Shown here piece by piece: positions 2,656 through 17,174 of a stretch of 24,363 bases of DNA. Numbering within the stretch: the stretch's first letter is position 1; each line of letters begins with the position of its first letter. Where the stretch lies: positions 1 to 24,363 of IMG/VR virus record IMGVR_UViG_3300044878_000092; one strand, 5' to 3'. The notes under the pieces were generated by a model. It was not told the origin of the DNA and did no database searches. It saw only the letters and a program-made list of their open reading frames with translations. A program made the translations under genes and the position numbers. The stretch is from a virus. Its lineage: Duplodnaviria; Caudoviricetes.

Positions 2656-5600
2656 CTGTTGAATTCTTCCCGAACAAAATGGCCGGCTGCCAACCGCTGG
2701 CCACCTACACCACGCACGAACGCATGACGATCGAGGCCTGGCTCAAGGGCATGACGGAACACTACCAGCGTGCCCCAGTGCAGCCGGTCAGCGTCGAGCT
2801 CAATGGCGAATTGATCTGCCCGACGCTCTGGCACAAGGTCAAGTTCAAGCCGGCCGATCACGTCCAAATCTGGAACGAGCCGAAAGGCTCCGACCCGTTC
2901 ACCATCACCGCCCTGCTGATTGTTGGCGCATTTGCCGCGAGCAAGATGCTCATGCCCAAGATGCCCGGCATGCCAGCCAATACCGGTGTCGCCCAAGGCA
3001 GCCCGCTCGACGAAGCCAGCGCCAAGGGCAACAAGGTCAAGCTCGGCGAACTGATTCGCAACGTCGCCGGGCATCAGAAGGTGTTCCCGTCGTACCTGGC
3101 TGAGCCGCGCACCTGGTTTGCCGCACCACGCGAAAAATGGGTGGAGATGCTGCTGTACGTCTCCGAAGGTGCGGTGGCACTTAGCAAGCTCAAGGTGGGC
3201 GAAACCCCGCTGATCTCTCTTGGTTCCGATGCTCAGGTGATGATCTACGCGCCCGGCGCCGACGTGTCAGCCGATACCGCCTCGATGCTGTGGTTTAACG
3301 CCAAGGAAGTCGGCGCGAGCTCGAGCGGCACGTCAGGGCTTGAATTGACCGTGTCGACCAACCTCACCCCGTCCGCCACGGCCTCGGCCTATCAGTTCAA
3401 CGGCGACACGATCGCCATTCCGTCCGGCGCCGGAAGTTTCCCGGCAGACTGGGAAACCGGTCTGGTGATTCGTGCTCTGGCGCCCTACACCTACACCGTG
3501 GTCGATGGCGGCGCAGGCCGCGACATCGTGCAAGGTCCGCTGGAAATGCTCAGTCCTACCCCCGGCATGCTGATTGAAGTAGCCGGAGCGAACGCTGGCA
3601 ACTACGTCGTCAACTCGTACACACCGTATGCTCCAGCGGTGCCGCCGACCTCTGGCACCGCCTCGACGATCCTCGGCTCAAGCATCCCGGCGCGCTATGA
3701 CTTCGACGTGACCCCGCTGTCGGTCACCGTGACGCTGGGCGGCACGCCGTATGCGGTCAACCTGACGACGGCGACCACCGATCTTGCTGGACTGGTATCG
3801 GCTTTCAACACGGCCAAGGGTTCGGCGCCATTCCTGGCCAGCGCCTCGTCCGGCAAGTTGCTGATCACGCAGTTCGGCACCTTCGGCGGCGAAACCATGG
3901 TGGCCACCGGCGGCGCCGATATCCTCGGTTCCAGCCCGGTCAACACCACCGGCACAGCGGCAAGCGCCGGCATGCCCGAAGTCCCGGCACAGATGACCCT
4001 GGACTACGACGGCGGCGCACCGGTTGTTGGTTTGGCCCTCGGCTCTGGCTTGGCCACCATCGGCCCGCGCGGCCTGCGCTACCGGATCACGGCGTTCAGC
4101 ACCTCGATCATGACCGTTGACCGGCTCACCGCGTCGGGCTCGGTGGATTCCGGATGGATTGGATTCAATCCAATGGAAACCGTAAACGGCTTGGTCACCC
4201 TCGATCCATCCAGTCTCGAGGGCGGCTATCGCGGCCCGTTCGCTTGCTCGCCAGAGAATGAAAAGGTCACGCGCATCGAGTACACCATCGCCTTCGACGG
4301 CCTGATCGGCATGGGCCGGAAAGGTGATGAATACACGATCTACTCGTCGCATCAGTTCGAGTGGCGAGACATGGATGTTGCCGGGGCGTGGACCGTCCGG
4401 ACGCAAAGCGTTACCGGTCACTCGCGGGATGCGCAAGGCTTCACCTTTTGGTTCGATCTGCCCTACCCGATGCGGCCAGAAGGCAGGCTCAAGCGCCTAC
4501 CCAAAGGCGGCGGTTCTAACAGCGCCGAGTGGATCGACAGCCCGAGATGGGAAAGTCTGCGTGGCTTGCGTCAGACGCGGCCGACCAGCTACCCGGGCAT
4601 GACCGTGATGTCCGTCAAAATTCGCGGCGGTGATCGACTGTCTGCGCAATCGGAAAGCCAGATCAACGGCGAAGCAACCCGCGTGCTGCCGGTTCGCTCG
4701 GGCGGGGCTTGGCAGGCGCCGGTGGCCACCCGCGGCATCGTGCCCTGGTGCCTGCATGTCCTGAAGTCGCTGGGCTATGAAGACGGCGACATCGACCTGG
4801 AAGAGTGGGATCGGCTGGACCTGGTATTCAACGCCGCCGGCCAGTATTACGACGAGACCATCGACGACAACAGCACCGCCAAGGATCGGCTCAACGATGC
4901 GCTGGCTTGCGGCTTTGCCGAGCTGACCATCAAGAACGGCCTGGTCAGCCTGGTGCGCGACGAGCCGCGGGCGATATTCGATATCACCTACGGCCCGAAG
5001 ACGCAGACCTACAGCCCGCAAAACATGACCAAGAAGCTCAGCATCGCCGGGCCGCTGACTTCGCTCAACGACATCGACGGCGTGGATGTCGAGTATTTCT
5101 CGAACATCACCTGGGCCTGGGAAACCGTGCCGTGCCGCTGGCCAGGCGATGCCGGCAACAAGGTCGAGAAGGTCAAGCTGCCGGGTGTGGGCGATCGCAA
5201 CCGGGCGTATCAGTTCGGCATGCGCCGTCGCGGACACCAGAAGTTCCGGCAGGACACCTACACCTGGGAAACCGAACTGGCCGGCATGAACTCGGACTAC
5301 CTGAGTTTCTGCGCGGTGGCCAGCGATACCCCGGGTCAATGCCAGAGCGCCGAGCTTGTCAGCGTGCAGGCGGTCAGTGGCGGCTTCGTGCTGGAGTCGT
5401 CGGAGCCGATCGACTGGTCAGCGCCCGAGATTTACAAAGTCGGCATCAGTCGTGCTGATGGCTCTCTCTCAGGTCCCTACCAGGGGACACAAATCGACGA
5501 ATACCACGTCCAGGTCGCCGACCTCGACTTCGTACCCGACACCAGCATGAGCGGAAACATGAAGTTGCCCCAGTTGCTGATCGGGCCTTGGTCGAAGTGG

Positions 5601-9007: not shown

Positions 9008-9262
9008 ATGGCACTTCGAAAAGATATTGAGTTCCGCGGCGTGTAAGTGCCGGACACCTACATAAAAATCGCGACCACTACGATAGTAGAGGGTAACGAG
9101 TGGCTGGACTTTAGCGTGCATTACCTGGCCGACGGGGCGAATACACCGTTCAACAGTGTGAACGTGCAGTGTGCTTACTCCCTGCTTGGGGAAAACCCAA
9201 TCAAGCAAGGCTATGAGTACCTAAAGACTCTGCCCGAGTTCGAAGGCTGCACCGACTGCTGA
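9008..9262 (+). pseudogene. Small tailspike-associated protein interrupted by an in-frame TAA at codon 13
   Basis: AGAGGA RBS then ATG 9008: MALRKDIEFRGV*(TAA 9044-9046)VPDTYIKI...GENPIKQGYEYLKTLPEFEGCTDC. The C-terminus resembles the small proteins found after Pseudomonas tailspikes. Confidence 0.7.
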
Positions 9263-9281
9263 CATTTAGCGGCTGACCAAT

Positions 9282-9305
9282 AGCCCGCCATCGAGCGGGC
9301 TTTTT
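9282..9305 (+). terminator. Intrinsic terminator-like hairpin between tail genes and endolysin
   Basis: AGCCCGC-CATCGA-GCGGGCT followed by TTTT. Confidence 0.7.
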
Positions 9306-9324
9306 CATGCCTGGAGAAAAAGGA

Positions 9325-9876
9325 ATGCCAATCACCCAGCAACAGCTTCTGCAGATCCTCCCGAGCGCCGGCAAACAAGCCGGCGTTTTTGCGTCCGCAC
9401 TTACCCTGGCCATGGATCGGTTCCAGATCAACACGCGGCTGCGCATGGCCGCCTTCATTGCCCAGGTCGGTCATGAGTCCGGCCAGTTCCGCTACGTGCG
9501 TGAGCTGGGCGGCGACCAGTACCTGAGCAAGTACGACACCGGCACGCTTGCTGCACGCTTGGGCAACACGCCCGAGGCTGACGGTGATGGTCAACGCTAC
9601 CGTGGCCGTGGATTGATTCAGATAACGGGCCACGACAACTACCTCGCGTGCAGCAAGGCGCTGTTCGGTGACGACCGCCTGCTGCGCACCCCTGAGCTCC
9701 TGGAGCAGGCCGAGTGGGCGTGCAAGTCGGCGGCCTGGTTCTGGAATTCGCGCAATCTGAATGCATTGGCCGATGCCAGCGACTTCAACGGGGTCACCCG
9801 TCGCATCAACGGTGGTCTGAATGGGCTGGCTGAGCGCTTGGAGTTCTACCAGCGCGCCCTGAAGGTTCTTTCGTAG
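9325..9876 (+). CDS. Endolysin, glycoside hydrolase family 19 (chitinase-like lysozyme)
   Basis: GGAG RBS then MPITQQQLLQILP; motifs AAFIAQVGHESG, YRGRGLIQITG, SAAWFW, TRRINGGLNGLAER. Confidence 0.93.
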   Translation: MPITQQQLLQILPSAGKQAGVFASALTLAMDRFQINTRLRMAAFIAQVGHESGQFRYVRELGGDQYLSKYDTGTLAARLGNTPEADGDGQRYRGRGLIQITGHDNYLACSKALFGDDRLLRTPELLEQAEWACKSAAWFWNSRNLNALADASDFNGVTRRINGGLNGLAERLEFYQRALKVLS

Positions 9877-9908
9877 TTGGGGTTTGAGTCGGCAGAACGC
9901 CGTGGATG

Positions 9909-9930
9909 TGGAGCCCGAGGGCTCCATTTT
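9909..9930 (+). terminator. Hairpin terminator between the convergent endolysin and acyltransferase genes
   Basis: TGGAGCC-CGAG-GGCTCCA followed by TTTT. Confidence 0.6.
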
Positions 9931-9935
9931 GACTA

Positions 9936-10970
9936 TCAGGCTGCTTGCTTTCGCTGGATTCGCTGAAGCAGGGAATCCGCAGAGACTGATTTCGGCGGGG
10001 CCAGAAGTGCGCCGAGCCGGTAACGCTTGATGATGACCTGGGCGAGCAATGGCGCGGCGATGCCGATCAGGGTGCCGATGATCAGGTGCGCTGCCGGCGA
10101 CTGAATGCCCATGAGCTTGCTCAGCACCACGCGCACACCGCTGCCGGCAATGACGTGCATCAGGTAAATGGTCATCGAGGTAGCACCGATATGCATCAGC
10201 CCCTTTAGGCTCAAGCGGCTCAGGGTCATCGACAGCGCAATCACGAAGCCGATGGAGACCGTGGCCAGGGCCAGCGAGGCCACGCCTTTATCCTCATACA
10301 GTAGGCCCATGGGGCCGTGGAACAGATACTGGCCCAGCACAAAGAGCGCGCCCAACGTGCCAGTCAGGGCGGCGTAGTGCTTCTCGAACAGGGCTTTGAT
10401 GTCGTCAAAGCAAATCCCGAGGATGAAGAAGAAGGCATTGCCCAGGATAAACGTGCTGAGCATGCTCTTCGGCAGATCGCCTTGGATGATGTACAGGGCG
10501 CCGAAGGCTGCCAGCAGCAAGGCGCTGCGCGACTTATCGAAGAGCGTGAACAAGACCGAGCTGATGACGAACACCAGGAACAGCGCATACAGGAACCAGA
10601 ACTGCGCCCGTGGCTCCCACGCCAGCGACAGAACCTCGCTGAATGTCACGCTGCCATTTGTATACTTGGACAGGATGCTCTCAAGTGAGCCCTGTAGCAG
10701 CGACCATATAATGTACGGATACAATATGGTATCGACCTTGTTAACAATCAGGCCGGTGGCGCCGCGACTTTTAAACGAGTTGTAGAAAAACAGGCCAGAG
10801 AGGAAAAAGAACAGCGGCATGTGGAAGCTGTAGATGATGCTGTCCACCAGCTGAAACAGGTTCTCGTCCATTTGCGCGCCAGCCTTGTGCACGCCTCGCG
10901 CCACGTGCCCGTACACCACCAAGATGATGCCGATCGCCTTCGCGTAATCGACCCATGAATTCCTTTCCAT
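9936..10970 (-). CDS. Acyltransferase family 3 membrane protein (probable O-antigen/surface polysaccharide O-acetyltransferase, lysogenic conversion gene)
   Basis: 344 aa, about 10 hydrophobic segments; R..WVDYAKAIGIILVVYGH, YSFHMPLFFFLSG, WFLYALF and SMTIYLMH are Acyl_transf_3 motifs; GAGGA RBS. Confidence 0.88.
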   Translation of the reverse strand: MERNSWVDYAKAIGIILVVYGHVARGVHKAGAQMDENLFQLVDSIIYSFHMPLFFFLSGLFFYNSFKSRGATGLIVNKVDTILYPYIIWSLLQGSLESILSKYTNGSVTFSEVLSLAWEPRAQFWFLYALFLVFVISSVLFTLFDKSRSALLLAAFGALYIIQGDLPKSMLSTFILGNAFFFILGICFDDIKALFEKHYAALTGTLGALFVLGQYLFHGPMGLLYEDKGVASLALATVSIGFVIALSMTLSRLSLKGLMHIGATSMTIYLMHVIAGSGVRVVLSKLMGIQSPAAHLIIGTLIGIAAPLLAQVIIKRYRLGALLAPPKSVSADSLLQRIQRKQAA

Positions 10971-12713: not shown

Positions 12714-12944
12714 TTATTTGTCGCCGGACTGCCCGGCCTCATTTGCCAGCGCCTCAAGCGCGAACTGCACGGTGTACGGTGCTTTGCGGTACGTTTCGTG
12801 GTCGGTGGCCACCAGGTAGTAGCGCAGCGCCCGGTCACTCATGCCGAGGGCGGCGGCTGCCTTTCGCTGGCTGATGCCGGCCTTATCCAGCAACCCGCGC
12901 AGATACGCCGGGTCTGGGTTGTAGGTTGTTGCGTCTGGCTTCAT
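12714..12944 (-). CDS. aca1: Anti-CRISPR-associated HTH repressor Aca1
   Basis: MKPDATTYNPDPAYLRGLLDKAGISQRKAAAALGMSDRALRYYL...YRKAPYTVQFALEALAN closely follows the P. aeruginosa phage JBD30 Aca1 sequence as I recall it (PDPRYLRGLLKKAGISQRRAAELLGLSDRVMRYYL...YRPAPYTVQFALECLAN). Confidence 0.9.
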   Translation of the reverse strand: MKPDATTYNPDPAYLRGLLDKAGISQRKAAAALGMSDRALRYYLVATDHETYRKAPYTVQFALEALANEAGQSGDK

Positions 12945-12968
12945 TGCGACTGACTCGCTGTGATTGGT

Positions 12969-12990
12969 AAAGCCCCGGCTAAGGGGCTCT
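12969..12990 (-). terminator. Hairpin with short U-tract between the candidate acr and aca1
   Basis: Minus strand AGAGCCCC-TTAGCC-GGGGCTTT; possibly a leaky terminator. Confidence 0.45.
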
Positions 12991-13001
12991 ACTGCGGGCG
13001 A

Positions 13002-13181
13002 TCATGGAAGAGAAAGCTTTGCCAGCGACCTGGCTGCTTCGAGGTGGTAGCGAACATCACGGACCTGGCCAGGAACGTAGCCGCCGATAAACCCTTGGCC
13101 ATCGACTTTTGCTGCCAAGTGGCAATTCAATGCGCCCTTCAGCCATTGCATTGCTTCGTTCAGATGGTAGGCCTTGGTCAT
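13002..13181 (-). CDS. Candidate anti-CRISPR / anti-defence protein, 59 aa
   Basis: MTKAYHLNEAMQWLKGALNCHLAAKVDGQGFIGGYVPGQVRDVRYHLEAARSLAKLSLP; GGAG RBS 9 nt upstream; only gene between the promoter and aca1. Function inferred by association only. Confidence 0.7.
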   Translation of the reverse strand: MTKAYHLNEAMQWLKGALNCHLAAKVDGQGFIGGYVPGQVRDVRYHLEAARSLAKLSLP

Positions 13182-13229
13182 ACGATAATGCTCCGCTATT
13201 CGCCGCGCCGGTGTGGCTGGCATGGGCTT

Positions 13230-13258
13230 ACTATAGGAACTATATTCCTATCTTGCAA
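13230..13258 (-). promoter_or_regulatory. Strong sigma70 promoter with an Aca1-type operator in the spacer
   Basis: Minus strand TTGCAA-17 bp-TATAGT; inverted repeat ATAGGAA-CTATA-TTCCTAT at 13233-13251. Confidence 0.85.
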
Positions 13259-13355: not shown

Positions 13356-13862
13356 CTAAGTCTCTTCGAAGAGACCCATAACAGGCGTATCAATCTTGCA
13401 AAACTCAGGTACGTGCTTTGCGGCAAGCGAGGCGTATGCTACAGCTGCATCCTGGGCGTTGTGGAAGTATCCGCGCTTAAACTCCCTGCCGAGTACGACT
13501 ATTTTCGCAAACCATCGTTTCCGATCCTTGCTCCAGTACACGCCTTTGTGGCCGGATGTATTGTGGTTGCCCGGGCCTTTGTTGTGCATGTTTTGAGATG
13601 GGCTCGCCAGCCTGAGGTTTGATCGCGTGTTGTTTAGGCCGTTCCCGTCAATGTGATCGACCTGCATATTGGCCGGGCAATTCATTAGGACCCTGTGAAG
13701 GTATCCTCTCTTTTGTTTTGCGGCGCCTCGCCCCTTTGGTGTGGTTCTGATGTAGGTATTGGTCCCTTTCCGGTCGACGGCCAATGAATACTTCTCCATC
13801 ACCCAGGCATCGGCCTCATCAAGCAGAAGCACTTCCCCGCCCGTGAATTCTCTCTGAATCAT
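13356..13862 (-). CDS. HNH-AP2 homing endonuclease
   Basis: LHRVLM...VDHIDGNGLNNTRSNLRLAS.SQN..N (HNH) plus SGHKGVYW...RW.AKI......GYF.NAQDAAVAY (AP2). Start probably ATG 13862 (GGAG RBS) or 13874; overlaps the integrase 3' end. Confidence 0.9.
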   Translation of the reverse strand: MIQREFTGGEVLLLDEADAWVMEKYSLAVDRKGTNTYIRTTPKGRGAAKQKRGYLHRVLMNCPANMQVDHIDGNGLNNTRSNLRLASPSQNMHNKGPGNHNTSGHKGVYWSKDRKRWFAKIVVLGREFKRGYFHNAQDAAVAYASLAAKHVPEFCKIDTPVMGLFEET

Positions 13863-15003
13863 CTTTCGCTCCATAAAGTTTGTTTGCCTTGGATCCGGCT
13901 TCAGGGTCAGCCGATGGCATCCATCGACCGTAAATCCTGCTAATCATGAGAAATGATGCGTGCCCCATCTGCTTGGCCACCCACATAGGATGCTCGCCCG
14001 CGCTCAGCATCATTGAGGCGTAGGTGTGCCGGGTCTGGTACGGGTTCCGGTAGCGCACGCCTGCCCGGCGGATGGTCGGCCCCCAGAATGACTTCCTGAT
14101 CTCCTGGTCGCCATTGAATGCCCGGTTGTGCCTCGGGTCGTGGAATACGGCCTTCCCTTCTATATAGGTGTGCTCGCGCTGGGCCTTCAGTGCCTCGAAC
14201 GACATGGGCAGCAGGCGCACGCTACGCACCCCGGCCGCTGTCTTCGGCGTCTCTGCCTCGCTGGCCGCCGCCGTCAGCCCCCGCGACACCCTCACTTCCC
14301 CGCGATGCCAATCAATGTCGCCCCACTCCAGCGCGACCAGCTCCGACGTTCGCAGGCCGGTCCAGAAGGCGAACTGCAACAGGTTCCGATACTGCCCGGT
14401 CGCTGCCGCCAGAATGGCCCGCTGCTCGTCCGGACTGAATGGGTCGATCTCGTCCTCGGTGCGCGGCCTTCCCTTCACTGAATACGTCCAGCCTGCCAAC
14501 GGGTTCGACTCGATCAACTCGTCGTCCACGGCATCGCTCAGGGCTGACCGGAGGCAGCTTTGCACGTTGGCCAGCCGCTTGTTCGTCGCCGACATCTTGG
14601 CCATGGCCGCCTTGACCTCTTTGCGCGTGACCGATGCCAGCGCCAGGCTACCCAGCGCCGGGACCAGAACCCCCGCAACGATCTTGCGGTAACCGTCCAG
14701 CGTCGAAGCCTTCAGGATTCCGGCCTTTCGCTCAAGCCACTCATCCAGGTACTGGCCCAGCGGAACCTGCCCGGACTGGCCGACAGCCGATGCCGCCCGC
14801 TTCGACCGGGGAAACGCCTCAGCATATTCAAACTCGCCCCGGTGAATCGCCAGGTCGATCGAGGCCTTCTGCTGCTGCGCCCGCTTCAGGTTGGCCGGCG
14901 TAGGCTCCAGCGGCAGGCGCTCACGGCACTGCTTGCCGTCGACCATGAACGAGATCTCGATACTGCTTTTCGATGCCGCACGCACCCCGCGCTTCGCAGC
15001 CAT
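13819..15003 (-). CDS. int: Tyrosine integrase with N-terminal Arm-DNA-binding (DUF3596-type) domain
   Basis: SIEISFMVDGKQCRERL...TPANLKRA N-terminus; catalytic motifs TGLRTSE, PKT, PYQTRHTYAS, QMGH, RIYGRW. Confidence 0.93.
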   Translation of the reverse strand: MAAKRGVRAASKSSIEISFMVDGKQCRERLPLEPTPANLKRAQQQKASIDLAIHRGEFEYAEAFPRSKRAASAVGQSGQVPLGQYLDEWLERKAGILKASTLDGYRKIVAGVLVPALGSLALASVTRKEVKAAMAKMSATNKRLANVQSCLRSALSDAVDDELIESNPLAGWTYSVKGRPRTEDEIDPFSPDEQRAILAAATGQYRNLLQFAFWTGLRTSELVALEWGDIDWHRGEVRVSRGLTAAASEAETPKTAAGVRSVRLLPMSFEALKAQREHTYIEGKAVFHDPRHNRAFNGDQEIRKSFWGPTIRRAGVRYRNPYQTRHTYASMMLSAGEHPMWVAKQMGHASFLMISRIYGRWMPSADPEAGSKANKLYGAKDDSERIHGRGSASA

Positions 15004-16673: not shown

Positions 16674-17174
16674 CTATTTAAGGTCGAGAAGCATCTGTGT
16701 CTTTTTGTTGGCGTCGATGATCGCTTCGATATGCTGATCTTTGATCTTTTTCCAGCTTGCGAGCGCCTTCCCGTGATGGCTGGCCTTTTCCTTGTCGCTT
16801 TCCATCGCTGATACCGCCTCAGCAAGAGCATCCATAGCGCTACGGCTTTTTCTCTGGAGAAGGTCGGCCATGTAATCGAAAGCCGCGATGTACTTCAGCT
16901 TCCACGACAGTGCACGCTTTCCGGTGAAGCCCATGGCCAGCAACGAGAATCCTTTTTCATCCATCAGGTACTCCCGGTACTCGCGATTCATCTCGTTGAT
17001 GAAATTGCTTTCGGCGAAGTATTCACTCCCCAAATTTGGGGACTGCTCGTTTACGTCGCGGATTAGGCGCTCGATATCACGCATTACGTGGTCGTGACGC
17101 TTGCCGAAGTGCTTCGCGATATCGATAGACCGAACGCGTGCCGATTTGCCGTGTTGCGAGATTTCAACTTCCAT
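16674..17174 (-). CDS. Rha family phage regulatory protein
   Basis: S.DIAKHFGKRHDHVMRDIE, Y.M...GFSLLAMGFTGKRAL.WKLKYI.AF are Phage_pRha motifs. Confidence 0.9.
   Translation of the reverse strand: MEVEISQHGKSARVRSIDIAKHFGKRHDHVMRDIERLIRDVNEQSPNLGSEYFAESNFINEMNREYREYLMDEKGFSLLAMGFTGKRALSWKLKYIAAFDYMADLLQRKSRSAMDALAEAVSAMESDKEKASHHGKALASWKKIKDQHIEAIIDANKKTQMLLDLK

Follow-up and report, generated by a model that had tools for sequence, protein, structure and literature searches.

The cassette described here lies on a linear virus record, IMGVR_UViG_3300044878_000092, the whole 24,363 nt of which were analysed and are called the window in the following. The record is about 47% complete, with tail genes on its plus strand and with recombination, SSB, Rha, methyltransferase and integrase genes on its minus strand, as assigned from Pfam and PHROGs. 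A promoter, an operator, a leader hairpin, a gene for a 59-aa protein, an intergenic hairpin and aca1 are all present, all on the minus strand (Table 1). Every element that the sequence-only reading had listed, from the promoter TTGCAA-17-TATAGT with its spacer dyad through the short leader, the GGAG ribosome-binding site, the 59-aa reading frame and the hairpin to aca1, was found again. At the end of the minus-strand block (9211-10970), we additionally observed an O-acetyltransferase gene (Acyl_transf_3) next to a 238-aa orphan, possibly a surface-modifying pair for lysogenic conversion.

Table 1. Features of the cassette and its integrase-side flank, in descending order of position.
Feature	Position	Strand	Basis or remarks
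Tyrosine integrase gene, anchoring the variable slot	13819..15003	-	Pfam match and sister loci
HNH-AP2 endonuclease gene	13356..13874	-	upstream of the cassette, at the integrase 3' end; outside the cassette
Sigma-70-type promoter	13230..13258	-	-35 TTGCAA 13258-13253, 17-bp spacer, -10 TATAGT 13235-13230
Aca1-type operator dyad	13233..13251	.	overlaps spacer and -10 box; 7-bp arms; core GGAAT-ATA-GTTCC
ATG at predicted transcription start	13221..13223	-	in frame with the cargo gene, allows a 73-aa form
Leader hairpin, 3+3 bp, published Aca1-binding RNA motif	13202..13221	-	18/20 to the JBD30 leader; fold
Ribosome-binding site GGAG	13191..13194	-	9 nt before the start codon
59-aa cargo gene (P0001)	13002..13181	-	basic, predicted two-helix hairpin; family without named function
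Intergenic hairpin, 10 bp	12967..12992	-	z -3.87; no U-tract
aca1, 76-aa HTH repressor	12714..12944	-	structure-sequence match and identity to JBD30 Aca1

In every feature compared, the cassette qualifies as a true regulatory unit of the acr-aca1 type. Alignment of the fetched records places the -35 box, operator, -10 box, leader and start codon in register with the acr promoters of JBD30 and DMS3, and the inverted repeat of the operator overlaps the core promoter, as this operon type requires. The promoter consensus by itself is within chance (2 sites in the window against 0.9 +/- 1.0 in shuffles); a promoter matching at 9 of 12 positions with a dyad of at least 6 bp inside it occurs once in the window and twice in 40 base-shuffled windows. 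The promoter occupies what was once the integrase 3' end. In L001, a complete 53-kb phage whose integrase gene is followed immediately by the same cassette, the stop codon of that gene is located inside the promoter. One operator half-site has a T in the window and a C in L001, so that the dyad is perfect in L001, as it is in one public contig. The G, G and A positions that give specificity in the contacts described in PMC8633003, the source also of the JBD30 half-site, are kept in both half-sites of the window. Since the changed base is only a minor contributor according to that work, repression of the window promoter by Aca1 is likely kept despite the T. A separate observation concerns the HNH-AP2 insertion (13356-13914), which provides the integrase with a new C-terminus and has left its old 3' end, together with the cassette promoter, downstream. 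The endonuclease gene is absent from L001 and skipped by the public contigs, and a 78% identical gene occupies the same place in the sister locus L040.

The repressor itself matches the PDB entry 7vjn with an E-value of 1e-25, matches 7c0g and 7fa3 as well, and is identical to JBD30 Aca1 at 46 of 69 positions. Ten of the eleven DNA-contact residues of the Aca1-IR2 structure are kept (R22, S31, Q32, R33, S42, R44, R47, Y48, Y49 and R59), while V45 is replaced by A, an exchange that cut the affinity of Aca1 about fivefold (PMC8633003). The leader hairpin is about 20 nt long, ends 20 nt before the ATG and matches the 5' UTR pattern of acr-aca1 operons; its resemblance to the JBD30 leader, noted in the sequence-only reading, proved right. 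Within 5 mismatches of the JBD30 leader, the window holds a single further site, at 16784 with 4 mismatches, which was rejected as it lies inside the Rha coding region. What supports the hairpin is its conservation and published Aca1 binding: Aca1 binds a leader hairpin of this 20-nt type with a KD of about 61 nM (PMC13551039), and in an alignment of 13 leaders 98.7% of the cells are paired, with no covariation in the set. Its stability is not above that of shuffles (z -1.18). For the intergenic hairpin (12992-12967) no terminator was found; similar GC hairpins stand upstream of aca1 in three further loci (L008, L015 and L016). In the RNA runs (shares of at most 0.27; contigs from 4 of 19), one contig covers the promoter and the gene start and none spans the gene.

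The 59-aa reading frame is a real, conserved gene under selection. Homologs were collected as 10 clusters with phmmer, 3 further true relatives from the 50% library and, with a profile, 22 clusters at 47-97% identity, nearly all of them 59-61 aa long. The protein is net basic (7 K/R, 4 D/E), as had been noted from the sequence, and so are all 22 aligned homologs, with a pI of 8.9-10.9. Four of ten homolog pairs are saturated; among the six others, dN/dS is 0.07-0.11 in five and 0.26 in the sixth, and the two phage copies, which differ by 7 synonymous and 2 non-synonymous changes, give 0.08 on these small counts. AlphaFold2 predicts a helical hairpin with helices at residues 3-23 and 30-51 (pLDDT 94). 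The earlier description of helical segments around a Gly-rich loop therefore holds for the two helices, which are predicted, but not for the loop, which comprises residues 24-29, with G33-G34 inside helix 2. Two YHL-containing segments had also been singled out, and we rejected a YHL repeat as a family motif, since Y5 occurs in 23% of the 22 homologs and Y45 is not the majority residue. Conserved positions are instead E9, W13, G16, N19, C20, K25, G28, Q29, Y35, R44 and a C-terminal P-x-L-P, together with L47, which is present in 100% of the 22 homologs. GC3 is 0.58 in the 59-aa gene and 0.78 in aca1 and the integrase gene, which fits a recent capture.

The protein family appears new, while the kind of operon is known, as judged from the searches that follow. 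The protein has no match in Pfam or PHROGs, in 50,697 phage records or in plasmid records, and no true homolog among GTDB species representatives; single-sequence and profile searches of PDB gave only E-values of 0.9 or higher. Negatives from NCBIfam were discarded, since the controls AcrIF1, AcrIE3 and JBD30 Aca1 were missed there too. With the predicted hairpin, Foldseek returned no match at E <= 0.001, and the best match of the fold search (VIA Z 7.7) stands among generic helical pairs, with no Acr among the matches listed. An unnamed ESM Atlas cluster at 0.78 is within chance, and longer or fused forms of the protein were not found, which is weak evidence. A literature search with short peptide motifs of the protein yielded no paper, supplements and the candidate table of PMC7913775 lying outside its scope. 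Several further matches were dropped: L002 and L026 as chance matches of 22 and 11 residues, P0016 and P0017 as repeat proteins, and L021-L023 as weak HTH matches.

The 22 clusters provide four independent genomic contexts (L001, L003, L004 and L005/L006). Whether homologs sit beside aca genes was a check that the sequence-only reading had named, unlinked homologs counting there against the function, and the outcome goes partly that way: aca1 adjoins the gene in one of the four contexts, L001, and neither aca1 nor an Aca1 leader is found within the fetched loci of L003, L004 and L005/L006, those of L003 and L005 ending 155-360 bases past the gene. These three contexts are plasmid-like groups of small genes. 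In L003, the gene is the last in a run of small ORFs; the locus contains the dyad of the run's promoter in four copies, and facing the run is an ORF recognised by eye as RHH-like. In L005/L006, it belongs to an operon with a promoter dyad between -35 and -10, three further dyad-type promoters lie nearby, and its neighbours are a PAPS reductase, a DUF6283 gene and a NADAR gene. On the 279-kb contig L004, the gene comes after that of an orphan methyltransferase sharing 75% identity with genes carried by large Pseudomonas plasmids, to which the PAPS reductase of L006 can likewise be matched; no promoter with a dyad was found near the gene on L004. Several further clusters reside on contigs of 70-176 kb. 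PAPS reductases and orphan methyltransferases have been described in anti-defence clusters (PMC13551039; PMC7648647), and phage NADARs counter DarTG1 (PMC11257639). The NADAR of L005/L006, however, also resembles an N-glycosidase of the riboflavin pathway more strongly and an anti-phage NADAR family more weakly, a point against the anti-defence reading. What the contexts share is that a small gene stands in an operon under repressor control within a mobile element; aca1 accompanies it in the minority of cases.

Apart from the gene itself, operator-like dyads lie over promoters of small-gene operons at L005:1825-1860, at L006:1102-1135, 2479-2510 and 3705-3740, and at L003:938-993 and 2755-2811, and their repetition suggests multi-operon regulons on plasmid-like elements. 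L004 additionally contains three tandem 20-nt AT-rich repeats (622-681), iteron-like or operator-like in appearance.

On the phage side, the slot after the integrase was compared over 35 sister loci, defined by IMG/VR integrases at least 82% identical to that of the window (the top 35 of 80, themselves the best 80 of 240); the 45 loci L075-L119, with integrases at 54-73% identity, were left out of the count. The regulator following the integrase is aca1 in 14 of these loci, an RHH-like gene of about 75 aa in 12, another HTH gene in 2, a Rha-like gene in 2 and a second RHH-like gene in 1, while three loci end early and one has no regulator. Counted by their first gene, the cargos represent 12 families in the 14 aca1 cassettes and 9 in the 12 RHH cassettes, i.e. 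21 families over 26 cassettes. Among the 14 aca1 cargos, 8 are net basic and 5 acidic; cargos of the slot include a T5orf172 protein, a hydrophobic one of 61 aa and, further along, methyltransferase-like and Ead/Ea22-like genes. The slot is thus hypervariable, and both cargo and regulator are exchanged there.

The RHH-type cassettes (L040, L043-L046, L049, L053, L058, L061, L063, L064 and L068; e.g. L044:4185-4749) keep the -35/-10 spacing of the aca1 type and have another spacer dyad, another conserved leader and a variable small cargo. In the ESM Atlas, RHH_1 clusters are neighbours of the protein of about 75 aa at 0.93, which is no more than a lead, and we regard its gene as a candidate for a new Aca-type regulator. 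In 30 of the 31 cassettes examined, and in both cassette types, an ATG recurs 6-7 nt past the -10 box, where transcription is expected to start. It occurs in 18 of 19 Aca1-type leaders, JBD30 and DMS3 included, and in all 12 RHH-type leaders; an uninterrupted frame leads from it into the cargo in 10 of the 19 and in none of the 12. A 5'-terminal AUG can aid translation, and this ATG possibly acts in that way; shared ancestry may be an alternative source of its recurrence. Two more observations were made in sister phages. In two of them the slot holds a 102-aa orphan and a 136-aa HTH-like gene (L070/L071:4286-5063), the proteins of which match neither Pfam nor solved structures, including solved Acr and Aca structures. 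The complete sister phage, G001, carries a second, distant aca1-like HTH gene (38%; L025:720-1700, corresponding to about 24,000-25,050 of G001) that is preceded by a promoter dyad and a methyltransferase-like ORF, and an ORF similar to this methyltransferase-like one precedes aca1 in L018/L059.

The 59-aa gene was found in one of the 35 sister loci and in only one other IMG/VR contig, as would be expected of a passenger that recombination had brought from a plasmid into a hot slot and that is of no benefit to the phage, and the window operator, one change off a perfect dyad, points the same way. However, the excess of synonymous changes between the phage copies, small as the counts are, and the intact ribosome-binding site and leader spacing argue against a mere passenger, which we consider very unlikely.

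The exchangeability of the regulator across the sister loci and the very mixed cargos, exemplified by the hydrophobic and T5orf172 proteins, bear on another reading, in which the Aca1 module is a general entry-burst switch that is not specific to counter-defence and the 59-aa protein is a different early effector, excluding phages or plasmids, damping the SOS response or a host process, or helping establishment; PMC13551039 likewise allows for factors against superinfecting phages. Repression after entry would, however, fit counter-defence better than lasting exclusion, and the neighbours on plasmid-like elements are DNA-modifying or modification-removing enzymes, so we rate such an effector as rather unlikely, while taking it seriously.

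Aca1 serves as a marker for anti-CRISPRs, and in an aca1 operon that is intact the 59-aa gene occupies exactly the place of the acr. A further reading is that the protein is a new anti-CRISPR, one that would act on Cas3 or a Cascade subunit, and not as an acidic DNA mimic, in systems of type I-F, I-E or I-C or of the plasmid-borne type IV. The strong net negative charge of acidic DNA mimics, as in an AcrIF2-like control with 3 K/R and 15 D/E, is absent from the 59-aa protein; basic charge is no bar, given that JBD30 AcrIF1 has 10 K/R and 9 D/E. When 27 candidates linked to aca1 or aca4 were tried in P. aeruginosa, 7 were Acrs (PMC7913775), and type IV-A CRISPR can be found on plasmids of environmental Pseudomonas (pQBR preprint 10.64898/2026.03.27.714766). 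In another phage, L037, an AcrIF2 homolog and aca1 stand under the same leader type, which therefore does serve true Acrs and counts against a non-CRISPR role. We also observed a strongly acidic 73-aa orphan (4 K/R, 18 D/E) at L032:1558-1779, which has the same leader and aca1 as its next gene and gave no match in Pfam or PHROGs; judged by its composition and position, it is a more typical Acr candidate.

Against an anti-CRISPR stand the three of four contexts in which the fetched loci hold neither aca1 nor a recognisable acr neighbour, and the searches for named Acrs. The 59-aa protein matched none by Pfam, PHROGs, PDB, the phage and plasmid records or its 22 clusters, libraries with known Acr gaps, and the earlier description of the protein as unrecognised stands for the libraries, PDB and folds searched, to the extent that these libraries cover Acrs. 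No named Acr was recognised among the slot cargos either, scanned with Pfam, with PHROGs for the aca1 cargos only and with PDB for 5 proteins, again with incomplete library coverage. As controls, Pfam recovered two of three Acrs (AcrF1 and AcrF2, not AcrIE3), PHROGs all three, one by name and two as 'unknown', and NCBIfam none; several slot cargos match 'unknown' PHROGs. Because control Acrs were missed or labelled 'unknown', the lack of a named Acr in the sister cargos carries little weight.

The probable host bears on the same question. The closest integrases of cultured phages are those of the Pseudomonas phages MR13 and MR15 at 69%, with P. aeruginosa phages lower at 56-58%, one sister-phage cargo has an identical counterpart in P. 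veronii, and the homologs of the 59-aa protein named at NCBI come from Pseudomonas sp. AB12(2023) and RP23018S, both non-aeruginosa. From these relationships, we infer that the host is probably an environmental, non-aeruginosa Pseudomonas. CRISPR is uncommon in such hosts, a survey having found it in 48 of 275 Pseudomonas genomes, with P. aeruginosa making up 39 of the 48 (PMC10379622), and this host range, together with the lack of any match among the phage records searched, also speaks against an anti-CRISPR. We therefore consider a new Acr unlikely. The CRISPR link of the gene is weak, weaker than earlier proposed; where the sequence-only reading had offered a new Acr family or an inhibitor of another defence system, the second half fits better than the first.

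We propose, tentatively and at somewhat less than an even chance, that the 59-aa protein is an entry-expressed inhibitor of a non-CRISPR host defence. An Aca1 promoter fires on entry into a cell without Aca1, after which Aca1 represses it via the operator. On entry of the phage DNA, cargo and Aca1 would thus be made together in a burst, and Aca1 would then bind the operator and the leader RNA and shut expression off, a timing that suits a protein needed only at entry. The predicted helical hairpin, the gene of which may have been captured from plasmid-like elements, would bind and block a host defence protein, probably not CRISPR-Cas. Direct binding is suggested because the protein has 59 aa and no recognisable catalytic fold, and a basic hairpin of this predicted form, its conserved residues including polar and aromatic ones, would most likely act by binding a protein or nucleic-acid complex. 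A non-CRISPR target is favoured because the neighbours on plasmid-like elements are enzymes of DNA modification or its removal, because the slot holds no recognisable Acr, and because CRISPR is uncommon outside P. aeruginosa (PMC10379622); none of these three reasons is decisive. The anti-defence reading is supported by two of the three off-phage contexts, in which the gene ends a small-gene operon under an operator-overlapped promoter. Against the proposed inhibitor count the generic hairpin without an informative fold match and the L004 context, where the gene lacks a nearby dyad promoter.

In a broader view, the hairpin could found an anti-defence family common to phages and large plasmids, the slot could be a library of at least 21 uncharacterised inhibitors under interchangeable repressors, among them an RHH-type Aca not described so far that has an operator and a leader of its own, and the Aca1 circuit could be redeployed mainly against non-CRISPR immunity; we hold this combined picture to be doubtful. 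It would matter since most aca-linked candidates assayed in PMC7913775 did not inhibit CRISPR. With about 21 small gene families, one to few at once, behind matched promoters at one fixed site, the slot offers a ready panel for asking whether Aca-regulated genes other than Acrs are inhibitors of other defences. As a starting point the 59-aa family is attractive, being conserved, predicted to fold well and present on phages and plasmid-like elements, although the gene alone is one among several hundred such candidates.

Compared with known systems, the cassette is closest to acrIF1-aca1 of JBD30 and acrIE3-aca1 of DMS3, with which it shares promoter geometry, operator position, leader hairpin, gene order and Aca1. 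It differs in its unrelated cargo, in its operator half-sites (GGAAC/GGAAT in the window, GGCAC in JBD30), in the A at position 45 of Aca1 and in the second upstream operator of JBD30, which was not seen in the window. Its location is also different, since it follows the integrase in another phage group, whereas the JBD30/DMS3 type follows the tail-completion gene of Mu-like phages. The surroundings of the homologs, small genes with an orphan methyltransferase, a PAPS reductase or a NADAR gene, resemble the anti-defence clusters of plasmids (PMC7648647); in contrast to those clusters, the 35 ORFs scanned around the homologs yielded no recognisable ArdA, KlcA, Psi or known acr.

Unannotated Aca-regulated genes are common, as is already known. 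Feussner et al. 2026 (PMC13551039) reported 450 genes under predicted Aca1/Aca2 control in RefSeq and IMG/VR, fewer than half with a function, and proposed wider anti-defence roles for them; the 59-aa gene belongs to this class. From the text of that paper, none of the named clusters could be tied to the 59-aa protein, clusters of fewer than 5 proteins not being plotted there and its figures lying outside the comparison. The same work describes the RHH repressor Aca14, and the 12 sister phages likewise have their RHH-like gene in place of aca1; however, their dyad differs from that of Aca14, and their cassettes share a conserved leader, whereas no RNA motif is given for Aca14 in that text. Beyond what PMC13551039 sets out in its text, the sharing of a cargo gene with plasmid-like operons and the exchange of regulators within one slot are seen here.
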